DNA of 63,227 nt, the filler included, from Asterionella formosa (lineage: Eukaryota): NCBI GenBank assembly GCA_002256025.1. It is 16 parts of 16 records of this genome, joined end to end, with 100 filler letters (N's around TTAATTAATTAA, not from the genome) between each part and the next. Parts side by side here need not be neighbours in the genome. Positions count along the whole stretch, not along the records: positions 59,388 to 63,227 come from NKIB01013876.1; 15 more parts are not named here. One strand, given 5' to 3'. Under the pieces are notes generated by a model. The model worked only from the letters and a program-made list of their open reading frames with translations, was not told the DNA's origin and searched no databases. Made by a program: the position numbers and the translations under genes. The number at the start of each line of letters is the position of its first letter. The first letter of the stretch is position 1. This document shows, in pieces, positions 3,584-62,936 of the stretch.

Positions 3584-3820
3584 TTATTATGTAACTACTA
3601 AGTATGCATTGGATTCTATTAGATCCATTCAAAATCAACATCGTCATCAATGTCCCGTTGATTAATGCGGTCATTACAATCAATATTCCTTTCAGGAACA
3701 TTTGGTTGAAGTGATTCAACATATTGATGTATATCCTCTTCAATTACGTTGGGAAATGAGAAGTATGAGTGTGGGTAGATGATATTTGCGGTGGGAGTAG
3801 CAATTCCACTAGGATTCCTT
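3584..3820. repeat. Dispersed copy of an internal segment of the Plavaka-like element (matches ~21820-22060)
   Basis: Near-identical sequence in both places ('attatgtaactactaag...gagaagtatgagt...ccactaggattccttcca'). Confidence 0.85.
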
Positions 3821-3870
3821 CCATATTCAGATCGATTCTTTTGTGAAAGTCCAGTGTAGATTTCCTTATA

Positions 3871-12263: not shown

Positions 12264-13769
12264 ACAGGTTGCCGATCTGTTGATATTCTCTCATTGAAGG
12301 TCAAGGTACAGATTTAGAACCCTTTTATGGCTGTGACAAAATTTGCTGGTAATTGGGTCAGTTTTTCGATCAAAAATATGATCAATGTATCATATAATTA
12401 TGATGATGCAGTAAACTTTTACCAAGCTTGAAGTATGATGATACTATCATAGTTATAATACCATTGCATCATATAATTAGATAAACATGGTCATATGATG
12501 TGTATACTTTTATCATACATCTATCTTAGCATGATCGTAATTCTCATCAATATCAATGTTCAAAATAGGATGAAATTGATCGATATTTAGAACTACATTT
12601 AGCTAAGAATGGTTCTTTGATTCTATCATATCTTAAGTGGCTACAGAATGTTCTACAATGCTCTCATCACAATGATTGTTGGTGCCGCTTTCACTTCCAC
12701 CTCCCCCTCCCCCAATCCAATTCTGAAGGTTGTTGTACTGGTTGCCTTGCCGTTGTTCCCCTGCTTGCTTTGTTCCATTTACTCCTGATGGATCTGAGTT
12801 TGCATTCAAGCATTTTCCTATTACTATTTAATCCGTTTCGTTGTCCCATCCATACTAACAAAGAGGAGCAATTCATTGTTAGCTGTTCATGTTTTGGGTT
12901 ACACAACAACATTCATTTCGCTTCTATCTTGCTTCACTTACCACAAATTGAGGAAGTAACTGATGCATATTTCTGTAGAAGAATGTATCAGTCGAAGATT
13001 GAATGAGAAGCAAAGTATCGATCAATAAATGGGCTCCAACACTGCTGTTTGTAACTTACAATTACTGTTTGTCTACCATTATCCTGAAAGAAGCAACACA
13101 TATGTGTCAGTTTTTCTAACAGTTGTAGATTGATCCAAAGATGGCTGATAGGCAGCACTTACCGATTTCTTTTGTCCACAGCCATTGATGGTTGGCCAGT
13201 CACCAAATCGAAAAGGAGCTATTGAATCACTGAAAGGGGACGAGTCATTCCGTAATTGTAATCTCAACAATTGATAATCCTGGCATATGCTCTTCACATG
13301 CTGTGATACTATACACAGCTTGTTGATTCCGCCCTACTCCGCCCATCATATTCACTCCTTCTTAGCCGCATGGTGTATTGTTACTTCATTTTCGTTGCTT
13401 GAGATCCTTCATTTCAGGAAGTGGATGCAGCATGACAAGGAACATGAAAGTCATTCGCTCTTGACTTACCATCAATTGATTCCGCCCTTCTCTTCTAAGC
13501 CGCAAGTATCGCTCATTGTGCTTTATTATCACTTTCGTTTTCCGCGTCATCATCTGTGTTAATCCTTCGATTCAGGAGCAAAGTGTATGCCTGACAAGGA
13601 ACCACGACATGAAAACATGATTTCAAATGTTTCAGCCATGAATACATATATATAAAGATTTTTAAGAAGTTTAAATGAATATATAGTTGAACATTCTCAT
13701 AGTTTGAAACACCCTCATGATACGGCACATCCTGTGTATACTTTCATCAATTTTGATTATACATAATTC

Positions 13770-24052: not shown

Positions 24053-25734
24053 CCCCCAGTATATCACTGACTACCTGCTACTGGTACTCTGTATTTATAT
24101 ATGATATATTGTTATTGTCATATGATGTACCAGTACACATGAAGAGCTCCCAACCAAAAAAGGGGCTTAAACAATTTGCTACTACCAAAACCCTGGCGGT
24201 TATGACTTACACCAATTGAATGGTCTAAATAATTAGTTTCAACAGACGTAGAAAATATCGATGCAAACAAATTTCAGAAATAATACCGGTACACGTAGTT
24301 GTGGAAAACAATGGACATATAGTGCATTGAGTATTTTCGAATTATGTATATGCGAATATGATCATCTCAACCATATCAGATGTTCCATATCGAGAACGCC
24401 TTTGAATTTTATGAATGTATAACACTATATATATATATATATATTTACAAATTTTATTACTATATTCATGGCATATATATTTTGAAATCGTTCTGTCCTG
24501 TTAACAAACAATGCCTGCTGCTTCATGAAAAGATACGTCGTAGTAAAGCACATGACAAGAAAAGAAAGTTTACACAATACATAAGGAAAAACATTGTGAC
24601 TTCGACACATTGCGCCTTCGAAGGATGGAGAATGTTTAAGGTAATGAAGCCATCAATGTGGTACTTGGATGACAATTGTTGGGAGGCAGGCAGGACAACA
24701 ACAAATTGTTAACTAAATGCAGCCACATTTCCTTTTTTCTCAGTTGATTCAACAGCTCGTTTCGCTTGTTGGGGAGCACCAATGTAAAACAAAACCAAAC
24801 CAAATTGCGTAAGTGCTCTTGTTGCTCGTTGGACCTATTCACTTCTGTTGGAACAAAACTAACAAAATGTTTACCTTCTCTCAAAGTTAAGATGACAAAA
24901 ATGAACCGGTAAGTTTTATTCGACAACATTGGATACCCGAAACTTACTTATTCAAGAATTTACTGACAAGTTACTATTACAGACTTATGCATAGTTGCAT
25001 TGATTTGTGGTAAGTGAAGCAAGAGGATACGATGGAATTGCGTGTTCTTGTGTCAATGTAACATGACTAGCTAACAAATCATTCTTTCTCATTGTTACTG
25101 TAACTGCATGCATAGGAAAATAAAAACAATCAAACAACGGAATAGTCGGCAAGCTCAGAATGACACTTACAGCAGGGAAAGAGACGCAGCATCAGTAAGG
25201 CACTGCCTTGCACATGATTCAGAAAAGAGGAAGAAATTGTCGAGACAGGAAAAATATACATTGAGCCAAGTAGAGAGAGAAACGTTGGGTTGCTGGCATG
25301 TAGATTAATAGATAGCATTGCTGAATTTTATAGTTAAATTACGATCCATTTCAATCTATTTTGAACAATGCTTGTGATTAGAATTATGATCATGTTTACG
25401 ATAGATTTACGATGAAACAATTCACATGATAGCATAGAGTTGAGCTGATTTTAGGATACGTTGTAGTTATAATTTACATCGGGCGATCACGAGAAGTGAA
25501 AATAATATGAGAAGGTTTATGATATTGATGGGAAATGTTGTTGATCAGTTTATATACATTGTGTGATGATAATGTTCTTATTATCATTATACTTCAAGGT
25601 CGGTAAAATACTAATAAATCAGCATAGTTACAAGATAGCTTGATCATATTTTTGATCCAAAAATTATCATATATACGAAAATTCTGTGCCACTTAGCGTA
25701 CGATACCCTTGATCCTATATGCATGATACTTTTG

Positions 25735-43615: not shown

Positions 43616-46600
43616 GACAATTGAGAGTCCGGAGACAAGATCTGAGGGTACCAGACCATCCAGAGTCTGAAGAAGTCGCACAGGGCGCATCATGAGTGGC
43701 AAAGGAAAGTTTACCAAGAAGGCTCAAGCCAAGGGCAAGTTTTAAGCCAAGGGAGGGAGAAATATTGCTTCTCAATCAATCAATCAAGAAGTCAGTCAAT
43801 GACTATAACTACTACCTCGGATCATCGAAGCAGGCATCTGACTATGAGACTACTACTGAGTACCTCATCAATCATATCAAGAAAGTGTTCGACTATGGCA
43901 ATGACATAGGAACCGCGCTCGAGTTATTAGAACCAATCAACACATCGGTATGGAAGCCAAGAATGCAAGTGAGCATGGCAACAACAGAAGAAGATCGCGC
44001 CGCAGAGAATCGGCAATTTGAGATCGAGTTTAAGGCTGACTATGACACCTACAGTAAAAGGGTACAGGCCTACGAAAATAATAATACCAAGGCATATGCG
44101 TTGCTCTGGGAAAGATGCAACAAAGCCATGAAGAACAAGATTGAAGCAAGATCCGATTACAATAGGATCAAAAATAACCCAATAACATTGCTTATGGCAA
44201 TTAAAGAACACGCATTAAATTTTCAAGAGAATCGATATTCAATGTCGATCATTTTAGATGCGATAAGAACGCTTTTATTCACAAACCAAAAAGAAGGAGA
44301 AAGTCTACAAGACTACACCAAGAGATTCTGTGTGGCACGAGATGTGCTCAAGTCACACATGGGAGGACCCATTATCCTCACCAAGTTCGTTGAAGCCATG
44401 GATGGATACAATGAGAACGACATCAAGCAATGAGATAAATTTCGCGAACAAGCTTTCAGTCAATTTATGGCATATTTATATCTCAATAATGCCGATAAAG
44501 GTAAATACGGTTCAATTATGACCGGGCTGAACACTCAGCAATCACTCGGCAACGATCAATACCCGAAGACCATCACCAAATCAAATAATGTTCTCAGCAA
44601 CCATCGGTTTGACGTAACAAATAAATCTGTCTACAAGAAACCAGGAGATAATGATAAGAGAGGAAACAAAAGGATGCAGGCAAGGAAGACGAAGATGTGA
44701 ACTTATCGTTTGCATAGTTAGAAGGAAAATGTTACTGCTGCGGAAAAGCAGGTCACAAATCTCCTTCGTGTCGAGACAAGAATAAACCCAAAGAGGAATG
44801 GGCAATTAACAAGGCCCAAAGCCATGCACAGGCACAGGCTAATACATCTGACACGAGTACAGTTACCTCTGTTAATTCCAACAACCCGCCATCATCACAA
44901 GCTTCTCAACAAGCAAATGCCAATCAATTTGGATGGATGGGAGCTCATATGAAACTACAATTTTACCAAGCATCTGAGATGCGGAGAAGTATGGTTTTAA
45001 TGAGAAGGCAATCACCAACATCTTCAGTTATGCCGAAATGGCAGATAGGAAAAGAATTACCTATGACTCCGAGAAAGAAGATGCATTCATTGTTCATTTG
45101 CCTGACAAAACAGTTCAATTCAAAAGAATTGGGATGAACTTATATGTTTTCAAGCCAACTACAAGAATTAGAGCGGAGAATGCTCAAATGTTAAATACAC
45201 TTGAAGAAAACAAAACATTTTACACTGAACGTCAATTTCAGAGAGCTAAGCGAGCTCGCGATCTATTTCATGCCTTGAGTACACCATCAATTAACGATTT
45301 CAAGGCAATAATTCGTATGAATACGATCAACAATAATCCAGTGACTACCGATGATATCAAAATTGCAGAGAAAATTTTTGGACCTGACATCGGAACACTA
45401 AAAGGCAAGACAACTCGTCGCAAGCCGCTGCCAGTTGTGAACGACTACATCGAGATTCCTAAGGAGCTTATCCAAGCTCAACAAGAAGTGACTCTTTGCA
45501 TGGACAGAATGAAAGTCAATGGACAATCATTTCTCACAACAATTTCTCGAAACATAATGTATAGGACAGCGCAATGGGTCAAGAATCAGACAGCTGAAGT
45601 CTATCGAGATGCTTTGATTCAAGTATTCCGTGTTTATAATACCGGAGGATTTAAAATTACAACAATCCACTGTGACAATGAGTTTCGACCTTTGATGGAA
45701 AAAATTTCCAATGAATTTCAAGTCACTATGAACTACGCAAACCCACAAGAACATGTTCCTGAAGCGGAGCGAAATAATCGAGTGATTAATGAACGCGTGC
45801 GCACAGCTGATCATCGATTACCTTTCAAACATTTGCCACGACTGATGATTAAGATTCTAGTGACAGAATCTGCAAAGAAACTGAATTTCTTTCCGGCAAA
45901 GAACGGGATATCCCTGTATTACAGTCCTCGTATGATTCTACATCAACGAAACCTGGACTATGCTCGACATTGCCAGTACACATTTGGCACTTATGTCCAA
46001 GCACATGAAGAACCTGTGTTTTCAAACACTAATGCACCTCGCAGCCTAGATTGCATTTTTCTACGCTACAATCACAATGTGCAAGGAGGTCATGAATTGT
46101 TACACCTACCTACAAATTCATTGATCACTAGACAAACAATTACCCCTCTACCACTTACCCCAGCAATCATGAATCAAGTACACGCCCTTGCTGTGCAGGA
46201 GAATATGCCAGATGGTCTCAAGATATCAAATCGAACGGGACAACTATTTTATGATAGTGCTTGGATTGCAGGAGTGGATTATGATAATGAAGCATTTGAA
46301 GATGCACAAGATGAAGATTATGAAGATCAAGATGCTGGTGACAACGAAAGCAATGATGAAATTTTCGGAGAAGAAGACTATGATGAAATGACTCCGGATG
46401 AGATATATGAAGCAGAACAGCTTGAATTAAACAACAATACTCAAGAGGATGACCCTGAACCTGACGAGGGCAACAATGAGAATAATATCGAAATGAATGC
46501 AGATGATATCCAAGATGAGGATGAAGAGCCAGCAAATGAAACTGAAAACGAAGAGGCATTGTTAGAAGTCAATCCAAGCACTCAGGATGACTCAGACCCA

Positions 46601-47461
46601 AATGTTAGAACTACAAGGTCTGGAAGAGTCTCAAGACCACCGTCAAAACTAACCATGGTCCAAAATCATTTGCATACCCAAGCACACTGTCGAGAAGAAT
46701 ACACGACTGATAATGCGAGAGTGATCGCAAAGACAATGTGTTATATGAATGAGATGGTATCGATAAAGAAGCATTTCACTTTGTTCAGTCATACAGCTTG
46801 AGGAAAGGCCTCAAGAAATTTGGCCAGAAAGGAAGAGACGCTGCTTATAAGGAAATGAAACAACTACATGATAGAGTTGTGTTTGAACCGATTAGGATTG
46901 AAGACCTAACCGATATCGAAAAGCGACGTGCAATGGAAAGTCTAATTTTTTTGGTTGAAAAGAGAGACAAGAGCATTAAAGGCAGAGCATGTGCCAATGG
47001 CAGTTCGCAACGTGAATACATGGAAAGAGATGAAGCAGCTAGTCCAACTACCATGACTGAATCTGTTATGATAACAGCAATAATTGATGCGAAGCAAAAT
47101 CGTGATGTTATGACTGCGGATATACCTAATGCATTTGTGCAAGTGGATATCGATGAGAAAGAAAAAGGGGAGCAAATCATTATGAAGATTAGAGGTTGAC
47201 TTGTCAATATGTTGACAGAACTCAGCCCCGAGACTTATGAAAATTATGTTGTTTATGAAGGTAACAACAAGGTCCTATATGTTAGGATGATCAAGGCATT
47301 ATATGGCATGTTACAGTCATCATTATTATATTACAAGAAATTTCGGAAGGATATTGAGTCAATTGGATTCAAGGTAAACCCATATGATCCATGTGTTGCA
47401 AATCGCATTGTTAATGGCAAACAGCACACAGTTACTTGGCACGTAGACGATTTGAAATCAA
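43616..47461 (+). mobile_element. Degenerate Ty1/copia retrotransposon: gag with zinc knuckle, integrase, reverse transcriptase
   Basis: Zinc knuckle 'CYCCGKAGHKSPSC' near 44730. Integrase 'IHCDNEF...EHVPEAERNNR'. RT 'IKGRACANG', 'ADIPNAF', 'KALYG' and 'WHVDDLK'. Several stops and frameshifts. Confidence 0.95.
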
Positions 47462-59230: not shown

Positions 59231-60542
59231 AAATCCTGCATGAAGAAGGCCCAGATCAAGAAAATCGAAACCAGAGAGAGGAAGCATNNNNNNNNNNNNN
59301 NNNNNNNNNNNNNNNNNNNNNNNNNNNNNNNTTAATTAATTAANNNNNNNNNNNNNNNNNNNNNNNNNNNNNNNNNNNNNNNNNNNNACAATCTTGTCTT
59401 TGAAAGTTGGGAATAAGTTGGCGGGCTTGCTGCCAATTGCTCTTGCCTTTGCTGAAATTGATTTTTAATTTCATCGAAAACTTGATTGATTTCACCTCCA
59501 TTGCAATGAGGATTGATAAGAACTTGTCGTTGAAAAGTGGGAACAGGTTGGGCTCAGTCCATAGCATGGGCAAACAAACAATGCAAGTCCCTCTGACTGT
59601 CTTAATTTTGGAGTGAAAAGTCATTCTTGGAGAGCAATACCTCGTTATGAAAGTTCTGTTGGCCTGATTTGACAATCAAAGGCTTGTTTCTTGAGAAAAG
59701 CTGAAACTTCTCTGTCTCTGTCTCATGTTTTAAGTTCACTCATTGCATCATCCTTGTCATCAGGAGATGAGAGGTAAGCCGACATTGCTGGTCAGTGACT
59801 GACATTGGTGAAATTATGGAACTCATGTGGACAATGAACAAGAGGCCGCATAACACGCAAGAGTATGCATTGCTATGAAACTATGTTATAATATATCAAA
59901 TCGCCAAAAGAACTTGTGTTATAATACACACATGATATAAAATTTTTTTATTATCAGAGCGCGCCCACTATCTAACGGTGTGCATTAGGTAAGCAACACC
60001 CTTTTTACTTGTTTGTTGGGTATCTGGTACCCTGGTACCGGTACAATGCATGAATCATTATTATAATCATCTTTACATACAGTACCGGTACCGGTAGTAT
60101 ATTCTAGCAAAATAAATATCGGGCGGCTGATTCAACAATATAACGATACATGCCGGTATACCAGGTACTATGGCTGACACCATATCTACAACCAAGATTG
60201 GTACCTGGTCCCTGGTACCAGGGGAATCTAGTACCGTTAGACGATGGTACCTGGTACCCGTACCTTGTACCGTGCCAGTATCCCACCATCTACGGCCCTA
60301 CGCAATTTTTTTTATGTTGTCCACATGAGATGTGATAAGGATAAATGAAAATTTCGATTATTTGAACATTGGGCTTTATATATGCTCTGTATACTTTTAT
60401 CATCAAAATCCCTAACGTGACATTTCCATTCGGATCTTATTTTTCACGTGGCCACCGGCAGGCCCGAGTCAACGCACGCCTGAGCATGTTCAAAAATTCA
60501 TAAAAATAGACCAATCCCTTTTATTCAAACGATCAATTCAAC

Positions 60543-61034
60543 ATGGTAAGAGTGACACGTTCCTCCGCTAATAAAACGGCTGAACCGCCAGCAAAGAAGC
60601 CAGTGGAGGCAAAGAAGAAAGTAGAGAAGACCGCGAAGCCTGCCAAAGAACCTCCCGCGAAGAAGGAGACGAAGAAAAAAGCTCCTCCCGCGAAGAAAGG
60701 AGCTGCCGTTGCGGAAGAGAAGAAGGCGGAAGAGAAGCCCGAAGAAGTTCCTGAGAAGGAACCTGAAGCGCCTGCTGAAAAGAAGGTGGTTGCTGTCGAA
60801 GCTAGCAAGCAATGAGCAGCTTTCAACACACGAGCTATGACGATCGTAAAAGCTGTTGGGGATTTGGCCGTTGTCAAGATAGACAAGGTGGCCAAGGGGA
60901 ATTTTGTTGTTAGAGTCGAAGGAATCGACGAACCAATTGTTTTCTTGGAAGGGATGGCGCGCCCATTCCCTGCTTTGAAAGCACTTGACATGGAAGAAGT
61001 TGCGAAAAAGGTGCTGGAGGCCTTAAACGCATAG
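60543..61034 (+). CDS. SELENOH: Selenoprotein H-like protein (Rdx/SelWTH family), 163 aa with Sec at UGA 60813-60815 (motif SxxU)
   Basis: ORFs 60543-60815 and 60837-61034 share a frame. Readthrough gives VAVEASKQ-U-AAFNTRA...KGNFVVRVEG...FLEGMARPFPALKALDMEEV, matching the plant/algal SelH pattern (IEHCKQ[C/U]..FKTRA...RG.F...M.RPF..MK.L.MEEV). Confidence 0.88.
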
Positions 61035-61040
61035 GGGACA

Positions 61041-61092
61041 TGTTTGTGAATGTAGCAGTAAATTACTTTCTAATACTGTTCGAAAAGAAACA
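61041..61092 (+). promoter_or_regulatory. Candidate SECIS element (type 2-like)
   Basis: Helix I UGUUU/AAACA, core G-UGAA/CGAA, helix II AGCAGUA/UACUGUU with a 3-nt bulge, unpaired AA, and a UUA/UAA mini-stem. Folded by hand. Helix II is shorter than the canonical one. Confidence 0.5.
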
Positions 61093-61414
61093 CTGCAGCG
61101 AATAGGTTGCTGCCGATTGAAATATAGAGGGAATGACGATGCCAGATTTTGTGATGATTGCACCTGACACTTCAAGTAGATCGTTGGTTGCAGCTCCTTC
61201 AACAATGTTTATTTTTAAATTATAGTTTCAGAATTTCACCTTGAGCTGTACGGAATAGCAGCTTTTCACATAGATTTATTAAGAATTATTTGTTTCTCAG
61301 CATGTGGATTATACAGATATGATGTCCTCGATTCTTCTTTTATATTCCCTTTCTTCTCCCCGTTCTCCTGCTCACTTTATAGGATATGAAGTACCACTAT
61401 TGCTATTTCCGTTG

Positions 61415-62936
61415 CTAGTCGTCAGATTTATGAGGCCCACTGTCGAAACAAATTCCATCCTCGGAATCGACCATTCCCAACAACTTTGCAGATTGGATCC
61501 AGTATGTTTGAGGAGAGCCAACACCACGTGGGCGAGTTGTCTTCAAATTCTTGTAGATCTGGCGAATCTGGTCAGGAATTTCACGGCATTGCTCAAAGTG
61601 GAATCGCTGCATATCGGCAACAGTCTGGTAGATGCGGGAAATAGACGATGGGTAACACACGGCTCGTTCTGCACGATCCTTTGGACGCAAGTGAGAGCAG
61701 TGAATACAGCGAATACCCACTTGACCACGAACAAGTTTTTGTGCCCCCTTCGAATGGCGAGAGGAAACATCCTTTTCGGTTGCAGCAAACACCTCCACAA
61801 AATCAGACCTTACGAAACACTGACGATCACTGAGTGACTCAACATCGTTAGGCCCTGCCAGGAGGATTCTACGGGGGTTGTGGTAGTGCCTAGCATGCTC
61901 CTGTTCGCGTCCATGCTGGCTGTATTGCTGAAAGCGAGGAGTAATCTGACGATAACCTGAGTGGTCGTTGATGGGCAAAGGCGGGACTCGGTGTTGTACT
62001 TCTTGAGTTGCCTGGTAGAGTGCACCAAGGCCAGAGTTCACGATACCCTGGGGATTTTCTTCTCCTTGATATTGAGGTTGAGAAGGGTACGGATGATGAG
62101 GATGAGCGTGGTTATGACGTCCCATGGAATGAGCATTTCGTGAACAACTTTCTTCGTGCGCACAGGCGTCCTCGTAAGTTGGGAAAGTAGCAACACAGCA
62201 ATAGTCACACGCCCAGCGCTTTGGACGAAGCTGGACTTGCTCGTGGGAGCCCTGATGCTGGTTATATGGTCCATCAAAAGGCATCTGCTGAGCTGCATGG
62301 TATGGGTGTCCGTAAGCATCACTAGGGTAATAGTGTCCCTGCTGACGACCAGGGTACATGTAGCGACCTTCGTACCCACCATGAATTCCAACATGCCTAT
62401 CTGCAAGGATTGGTGTTACCACTTTCTCGTGAGGCATGTTCGCAATAGGGCTCTCGCCGACGTAGTAGTTCCTAGGATAAGTTGGAAATGGTGGACGAGA
62501 GTGCGTATCCGCTTTACGATCATTTGAATCTGGTGGAGATGGAACAATCACATGTTTTGGATATGAAGATGGAGAATCCGTCTCCATTGCATGTGGATAC
62601 TGTCTAAAGGCGATATCTCGACTGGATGGAGAATTGATATCCATGGCCTCGAGAAATCGATGCCTTTTTGTGAAGTCATGTTCTTGGCTGCCTGTAGAGT
62701 TTCTATCCGATTCTCGGCACGACCTGCTCCGAGGAGGGGAACGAGAACCGTCCCTGGAGGACTCCCAGTCCTCGTGATCATCGCGATCCAAGTTTCTCTT
62801 CTTTGTAAGAGCTGTAAAGATGACATCAAAAATAATAAGAGGCTGTCACTTGGAACTTTGATAGCGGTACAGCACTTAAACACTTACATCCTTGCTCAGC
62901 GGTGTTGTCGAGACGCTGTGTCCCCATGGTGGTCAT
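61415..62936 (-). CDS. Uncharacterised Cys/His-domain protein of a diatom-type family (~481 aa, putative transcription factor); intron 62887-62812
   Basis: ATG at 62936. A GTAAGT...TTTACAG intron joins in frame to the 458-aa ORF. Zinc-finger-like 'WACDYCCVATFPTYEDACAHEESC'. C-terminal 'LSDRQCFVR...GQVGIRCIHC...YPSSISRIYQ...HFEQC'. Confidence 0.8.

Follow-up and report, generated by a model that had tools for sequence, protein, structure and literature searches.

Gene layout and transcription

The SelH-like gene is located on the plus strand of the window, i.e. the whole stretch of 63,227 nucleotides of Asterionella formosa DNA that was analysed. Its features are compiled in Table 1. The reading frame starts with the ATG at 60543 and ends with the TAG at 61032-61034, and the TGA at 60813-60815 is its sole break. 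An ORF call with translation table 11 returned a 90-aa and a 65-aa ORF sharing this frame, in agreement with the original prediction, which had also placed a single TGA at codon 91 followed by 7 sense codons; the 65-aa ORF opens with the ATG at 60837. Reading through the TGA reproduced the predicted product of 163 residues together with the local sequence quoted for it (P0001). Relatives share the N-terminal sequence MVRVTRSS, and the 72 codons 3' of the TGA are free of frameshifts or stops.

Table 1. Coordinates of the SelH-like gene, its domains and its untranslated elements
Feature	Position	Strand	Remarks
SelH-like coding sequence	60543..61034	+	163 codons, codon 91 is TGA, TAG stop included, intronless
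In-frame TGA, codon 91, selenocysteine codon of the family	60813..60815	+	Aligned TGA in 45/46 loci
AGC, Ser88, where 43/46 related loci encode the Cys of CxxU	60804..60806	+	
N-terminal Lys/Pro/Ala/Glu-rich tail, residues 1-80, predicted disordered	60543..60782	+	pLDDT ~50
Rdx (SelW-like) thioredoxin-fold domain, residues 81-163	60783..61031	+	AlphaFold pLDDT 80-92
5'UTR, approximate transcript start	60484..60542	+	RNA contig starts 60484, 60511, 60516 (three runs)
3'UTR, approximate end	61035..61243	+	X10 RNA contig end 61243; second contig from 61258
SECIS-like element A	61040..61125	+	Both helices and GA kept, AUGU for AUGA
SECIS-like element B, decayed	61127..61200	+	AUGA 61133-36, 5/7 helix II pairs

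The sequence occurs in freshwater and lake runs, 8 of which are RNA. RNA contigs from 4 runs of 3 studies are colinear with the window from 60484, 60511, 60516 or 60624 through 61243 or beyond. They cross the TGA unspliced, as the original claim that no intron is needed had implied, and are free of joints, indels and variants over the coding sequence including the TGA; the variants found lie at 61208, 61226, 61384 and 61670. The evidence for transcription consists of contigs, for which DNA carry-over is possible, though no RNA contig lies over 60200-60427. In one run a contig covers 60516-61243, and another begins at 61258. These ends fit an mRNA end near 61243 that faces a convergent gene.

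On the minus strand a convergent ORF of 458 codons (61418-62791), rich in His, Pro and Tyr and free of Pfam matches, is entered by the RNA contigs. Its 3' end seems to face that of the SelH-like gene at about 61258. Upstream of the gene and outside the RNA contigs, a GGTACC-rich low-complexity stretch occupies 60100-60290. Throughout the window, runs of 44 N come in pairs at regular intervals of ~3.95 kb, for instance at 59288-59331 and 59344-59387; they look like masking rather than biology. ARAGORN found no tRNA of any kind in the 63-kb window.

Conservation of the TGA in relatives

A search with residues 78-163 yielded 9 database proteins that are 57-72% identical to the query. They read E-A-C-K-Q/S-W-G-A-F, with the W facing the TGA of the SelH-like gene. 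Relatives are encoded at 46 metagenome loci, among which there are several near-identical copies. Whether relatives carry TGA or a Cys codon at this site had been proposed as a check: the aligned codon is TGA in 45 of the 46, which shows what the W of the database proteins represents. The TGA belongs to a CxxU motif at 43 loci and to an SxxU motif at two (L003 and L004), while at the 46th locus (L044) the TGA exon is not resolvable owing to an intron. Since the residues after the TGA are this similar to the 9 proteins and the TGA itself recurs across the loci, the split-ORF pattern is not due to chance.

Strong AUGA...GA hairpins are present in the 3'UTRs of most relatives, among the matches listed at 54-164 nt past the stop. 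The hairpins of L011 and L014 carry GUGA...GA in place of AUGA...GA. A loose SECIS core pattern was found in 43 of the 46 loci. The TGA at the aligned codon together with the SECIS hairpins in the 3'UTRs identifies a genuine eukaryotic selenoprotein family.

For the locus L012, which has a CKQ-TGA motif, the scanner returned no SECIS in the 3'UTR of 331 nt (684-1014), where a putative AUGA...GA hairpin of very compact shape is seen near 732-772. A complete ORF from another gene caller, P0086, has Ser at the Sec position (C-K-S-S) and, judged by this sequence, may be a true non-Sec (Sec-to-Ser) relative.

Fold, family and N-terminal tail

In the predicted model a strand at residues 81-88 is followed by residue 91, encoded by the TGA, a helix at 92-105, three strands and a helix at 150-162. 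This beta-alpha-beta-beta-beta-alpha topology corresponds to the thioredoxin-like Rdx fold and is formed by the C-terminal 82 residues. A model of the domain only, computed with 31 relatives, reached a pLDDT of 88.9 and a pTM of 0.76. The TGA sits between strand 1 and helix 1 of the predicted structure. The aligned loci and the model thus confirm that the TGA takes the Sec position of the family directly after strand beta1.

The leading rows of a Foldseek search were SelW-related/Rdx structures with probabilities up to 1.00 but E values of only 1e-3 to 1e-2. With VIA-align the best six chains were all of this kind, namely the bacterial SelW-related/Rdx structures 3dex, 2ojl, 2obk, 2fa8, 2oka and 2p0g (Z 7.5-8.1, rmsd 2.6-3.0, 70-73 of 82 residues aligned). 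Mouse SelW (2npb) and MIEN1 (2ljk) gave Z scores of 6.1-6.3, and generic thioredoxins reached at most 6.5. Sequence identity of the domain to the SelW/Rdx/MIEN1 structures is 7-20%. A sequence search of the PDB with the read-through protein gave no significant match, and neither did a profile search with 31 relatives. The read-through protein likewise had no relevant match in Pfam, and none to Rdx (PF10262). Rdx was matched below threshold by 14 of the 31 relatives (best E 0.0021) and is the Pfam family matched by most relatives.

Another profile search found 472 proteins. Two of these carry the UniRef name 'Selenoprotein H': P0092 from Seminavis robusta (profile E 2e-26, 63% identity to the domain) and P0115 from Fistulifera solaris (7e-24, 49%). 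The structure matches and the names of the relatives bear out the claim of one SelH-like gene with an Rdx fold. To call it a hidden selenoprotein was an overstatement, given that SELENOH had already been reported as widespread in algae, being among their most widely distributed Sec proteins in the account of PMC7539508. The same source gives 20-44 selenoprotein genes for diatoms, and SelH is absent from Table 2 of PMC2375036, which concerns Thalassiosira pseudonana. The SelH-like gene is a member of a family already known in algae.

The N-terminal tail (residues 1-80) contains 21 K, 2 R, 15 E, 15 A and 12 P, which gives it a net charge of +8. The core motif of AT-hooks, GRP or RGR, is absent from the 80-residue tail. 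Human SELENOH is described in PMC10646972 as having a charged N-terminal region for DNA binding and nuclear localisation, with which the composition and charge of the tail agree. By analogy with animal SELENOH, the lysine-rich disordered tail would probably serve nuclear targeting or DNA binding.

The ORF structure might also be taken to indicate that the 90-aa tail is made as a small protein of its own, with reinitiation at ATG 60837 yielding a second one of 65 aa. This start codon, 7 codons past the TGA, is unique to the lineage, relatives having N, G, A, L, S, D or K in its place. Nevertheless, we regard reinitiation as extremely improbable: strand beta1 and the first part of helix 1 would be missing from the 65-aa piece, and conservation continues straight across the TGA.

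Annotation of the gene in public data

Identical protein pieces were found on 10 and 2 public contigs. The 65-aa piece (P0011) was called on the 10 contigs, and P0025 was called with a W at the TGA. In models of diatom relatives, P0092 (Seminavis robusta), P0115 (Fistulifera solaris) and P0125 (a Bacillariaceae MAG), the CxxU segment is skipped, apparently because the gene caller removed it as intron sequence. Whereas the models P0092 and P0115 thus go without the CxxU segment, the SelH-like gene is complete when read through. The expectation that gene callers split or mis-model such a gene was therefore correct. The proper annotation is one 163-codon gene of the selenoprotein H family and not two small ORFs.

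Peptides from MMETSP presented a different picture at the Sec site, with an apparent Glu in P0006, P0045, P0062, P0070 and P0076 and unrelated residues in P0075 and P0135. The local residues of these seven rows (ARAE, ASSE, ASPE, ASNE, VNPE, ANND.HSKL) equal a +1-frame reading of TGC/TGT-AAR-NNN-TGA-G. Real loci (L001, L008, L011, L023, L031) give ASNEA, ASPE, AKAEA, VNNE and ANNDP in the +1 frame. According to PMC4648414 the MMETSP protocol employed ESTScan, which reconstructs frames. Given this match and the use of ESTScan, the seven rows are no evidence for non-Sec orthologues, and we rejected them as such because their residues would be those of a hop into the +1 frame across the Sec codon and back. 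Such a hop turns C-K-x-U into a false A-[S/R]-x-E or ANND.HSKL. Other selenoproteins of the MMETSP sets may be subject to the same artefact.

SECIS-like elements in the 3'UTR

No canonical SECIS was found in the 3'UTR of the SelH-like gene; it contains the two SECIS-like elements A and B. In element A, helix I consists of 6 bp (61040-45 with 61120-25). It is followed by GUGA at 61046-49 and AUGU at 61050-53; GA is found at 61115-16 and an unpaired AAA at 61060-62. Helix II forms between 61052-59 or 61055-61 and 61106/07-61113. In the register of the family it has 7 bp, and the 3' arm keeps C-GA. To function, element A would need the GUGA as its core, 4 nt upstream of the AUGU that stands where AUGA is expected. 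In this GUGA register the pairs U47/U17, G48/A16 and A49/G15 can form, U51 is bulged, helix II has 8 pairs including three G-U, and the AAA stays unpaired 11 nt downstream of the core. The element is atypical in that a single nucleotide bulges out directly behind the core and that helix I joins the core with no internal loop in between. SECISearch3, as described in PMC3753652, downgrades features of this sort and requires GA-AG within the core, the core rule being UGAN/KGAW with obligatory GA-AG. When constrained to element A the fold has -13.8 kcal/mol, 4 kcal/mol above the minimum free energy (MFE) structure, which forms other hairpins.

The GUGA core has counterparts among the relatives. 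The SECIS hairpins of L011 and L014 share with element A the GUGA for AUGA in the 5' core, but their helix II follows the core directly without a bulge, whereas element A has a bulged U and the GUGA lies beside a mutated AUGA. L005 shows the same GUGA-AUGA tandem as element A.

In favour of element A, it matches a strict SECIS-like pattern that only 60 of 3000 dinucleotide-shuffled UTRs match; the thresholds were chosen after the element had been seen. Over both strands of the window (126 kb) the pattern has 6 matches, and only 12 of the 46 relatives' loci pass. Further matches lie at 3779-3834 (+), 25374-25455 (+), 46251-46298 (+) and 13624-13718 (-; 13718/13700), the one at 46251 being inside a long retrotransposon-like ORF (44876-46909). 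At the three matches inspected no selenoprotein-like ORF was found upstream, and we treated the other matches in the window as background. A covariance model (R1) built on the SECIS of 8 relatives finds 12 elements among the loci and gives element A 6.8 bits, which is background (17 matches of at least 7.0 bits across the window), but the model is too family-specific to judge this 3'UTR. Permissive Rfam scans of 59500-62500 and 61025-61250 returned no SECIS. This result is uninformative, because Rfam found none either in 20 relatives' loci with TGA and hairpins or in L005 690-820.

Element B begins 98 nt past the stop, like the element of L008, and aligns on both arms to the family SECIS. Where GA is expected it has, by alignment, CC (61196-97) or CA (61200-01). 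GA is present in all 21 aligned comparison elements by construction, since these were picked as AUGA...GA hairpins, and in the MAFFT alignment of all 21 the 3' arms are out of register. Within 61137-61230 GA dinucleotides occur only at 61166 and 61179, neither of which yields a helix. The GGTTGCTGC/GGTTGCAGC repeat in the 3'UTR is spaced by 81 nt and GAATG recurs at 83 nt. These spacings indicate that A and B are tandem duplicates, about 82 nt apart. Element B is far more decayed than A, which suggests that A has been kept by selection. RNA contig variants of the 3'UTR lie outside the two elements (0 of 166 positions inside vs 2 of 43 outside, Fisher p = 0.04).

Other candidate cores were rejected. 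The AUGA at 61133 with the GA at 61231 encloses a branched interior of 94 nt and has its 3' arm past the apparent mRNA end, the AUGA at 61154 and the GUGA at 61151 have no GA following a helix, and the AUGA at 60837 in the coding sequence pairs poorly. Inside element B the stretch 61129-61169 (+) shows a box C/D-like order of motifs (AUGACGA, CAGA, GUGAUGA, CUGA) with an Rfam sR7 score of 13.1 bits (E 0.83); this order is probably due to chance.

That the frame after the TGA is intact although no clean SECIS is present would also fit, indirectly, inefficient decoding of UGA91 by near-cognate Trp, Cys or Arg tRNA. Such decoding would require no SECIS and would give a full-length protein free of selenium. 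We consider this very unlikely. Relatives all keep the arrangement of TGA and SECIS, no tool result indicates read-through signals, and one substitution could have fixed a non-Sec residue instead.

Replacement of the motif cysteine and divergence of the protein

The redox motif of the protein is S-K-Q-U, with an AGC codon for Ser88, and the protein is without any Cys. The two other SxxU loci, L003 and L004, use the Ser codon TCC, show canonical SECIS hairpins and group apart from the SelH-like gene in a clade with good support. Owing to the different codons and the separate clade, the change from Cys to Ser with Sec retained arose twice. The canonical SECIS of L003 and L004 further show that loss of the Cys is not decay in itself. 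Two independent changes of this kind imply that the chemistry of the family can rest on Sec alone. As the protein lacks Cys, the internal selenenylsulfide of CxxU proteins cannot form. A literature search on SxxU selenoproteins gave no paper about SelH, judged by titles and abstract openings.

The gene is divergent in other respects as well. In the tree its terminal branch measures 0.48 vs a median of 0.1. It keeps 30 of 36 highly conserved columns, the fourth lowest value among 37 rows. The changed conserved positions are C6S, K18T, a 2-residue deletion, E-to-D, P-to-V and G-to-A, of which the deletion and the last three fall into the KPGKGNF loop. K18T is common to L001, a weakly supported sister.

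Possible continuation or failure of selenocysteine insertion

We favour, with some reserve, the explanation that the locus is an intronless, transcribed gene of the SelH family in which UGA91 encodes Sec, inserted through element A. Recoding would most likely proceed via element A as one of two tandem copies of the family SECIS in the 3'UTR. The ancestral AUGA of element A would have become AUGU, such that a sheared GA/AG core could form only via the GUGA 4 nt upstream. In the 82-residue Rdx thioredoxin-like domain Sec 91 would be the only redox residue, within the S-K-Q-U motif. We infer that the Cys-free protein would have to work with one selenol alone, in the manner of a peroxidase, and depend on an external thiol for its recycling. 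Our preference for continued Sec insertion derives from the retention of the frame after the TGA and of the helices of element A, both of which a long-dead gene is expected to lose; neither has been lost.

The same locus can be read as a recently disabled selenoprotein gene, in which both SECIS copies are defective and UGA91 terminates translation, so that the mRNA yields no more than the 90-residue basic tail, if any useful product at all. The frame after the TGA would then be intact as that of a young relic, left behind as the selenoproteome shrank after a move to fresh water. This possibility, which we hold to be real but doubtful, draws on the missing GA of element B, the AUGU of element A in the ancestral register and its background score under the covariance model. 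It is also consistent with the lost Cys, the long terminal branch and the 6 of 36 altered conserved columns. Moreover, the runs with the sequence are freshwater or lake samples, and it is proposed in PMC7539508 that leaving seawater reduced the selenoproteomes of algae. A disabled gene is, however, at odds with 72 codons after the TGA that have acquired neither frameshift nor stop, with 30 of 36 conserved columns retained, and with an identical sequence on 12 contigs that shows no coding variant in 4 RNA runs. Likewise, element A did not share the decay of B but still has its GA, 6 bp of helix I and 7-8 bp of helix II, and L003 and L004 combine SxxU with canonical SECIS.

Tentatively, the gene may be described as being in transition: the Cys has been lost and the duplicated SECIS damaged, with either a rescue by register shift or insertion that is already failing. 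For the rescue, the kink-turn core of copy A would have slid by 4 nt onto the pre-existing upstream GUGA. If insertion were already failing, the locus would offer a snapshot of selenoprotein loss following a move from the sea to fresh water. The SelH-like gene bears on the question whether selenoproteins are being lost in freshwater diatoms, a loss proposed in PMC7539508 for algae that left seawater. The damaged SECIS pair is in addition a test case for the deviation that a diatom SECIS tolerates.

Comparison with animal SELENOH

SELENOH is described in PMC10646972 as a small protein with a thioredoxin-like domain, in which a beta strand and an alpha helix flank the xxU motif with the UGA-encoded Sec, and its mRNA carries a SECIS in the 3'UTR. 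The SelH-like protein under our preferred reading of UGA91 as Sec resembles SELENOH as described there (animal SelH, BthD in Drosophila) in its fold, the position of the motif and the basic tail. In contrast to animal SELENOH it has SxxU for CxxU, is without any Cys and carries a K/P/A/E-rich tail of 80 residues.
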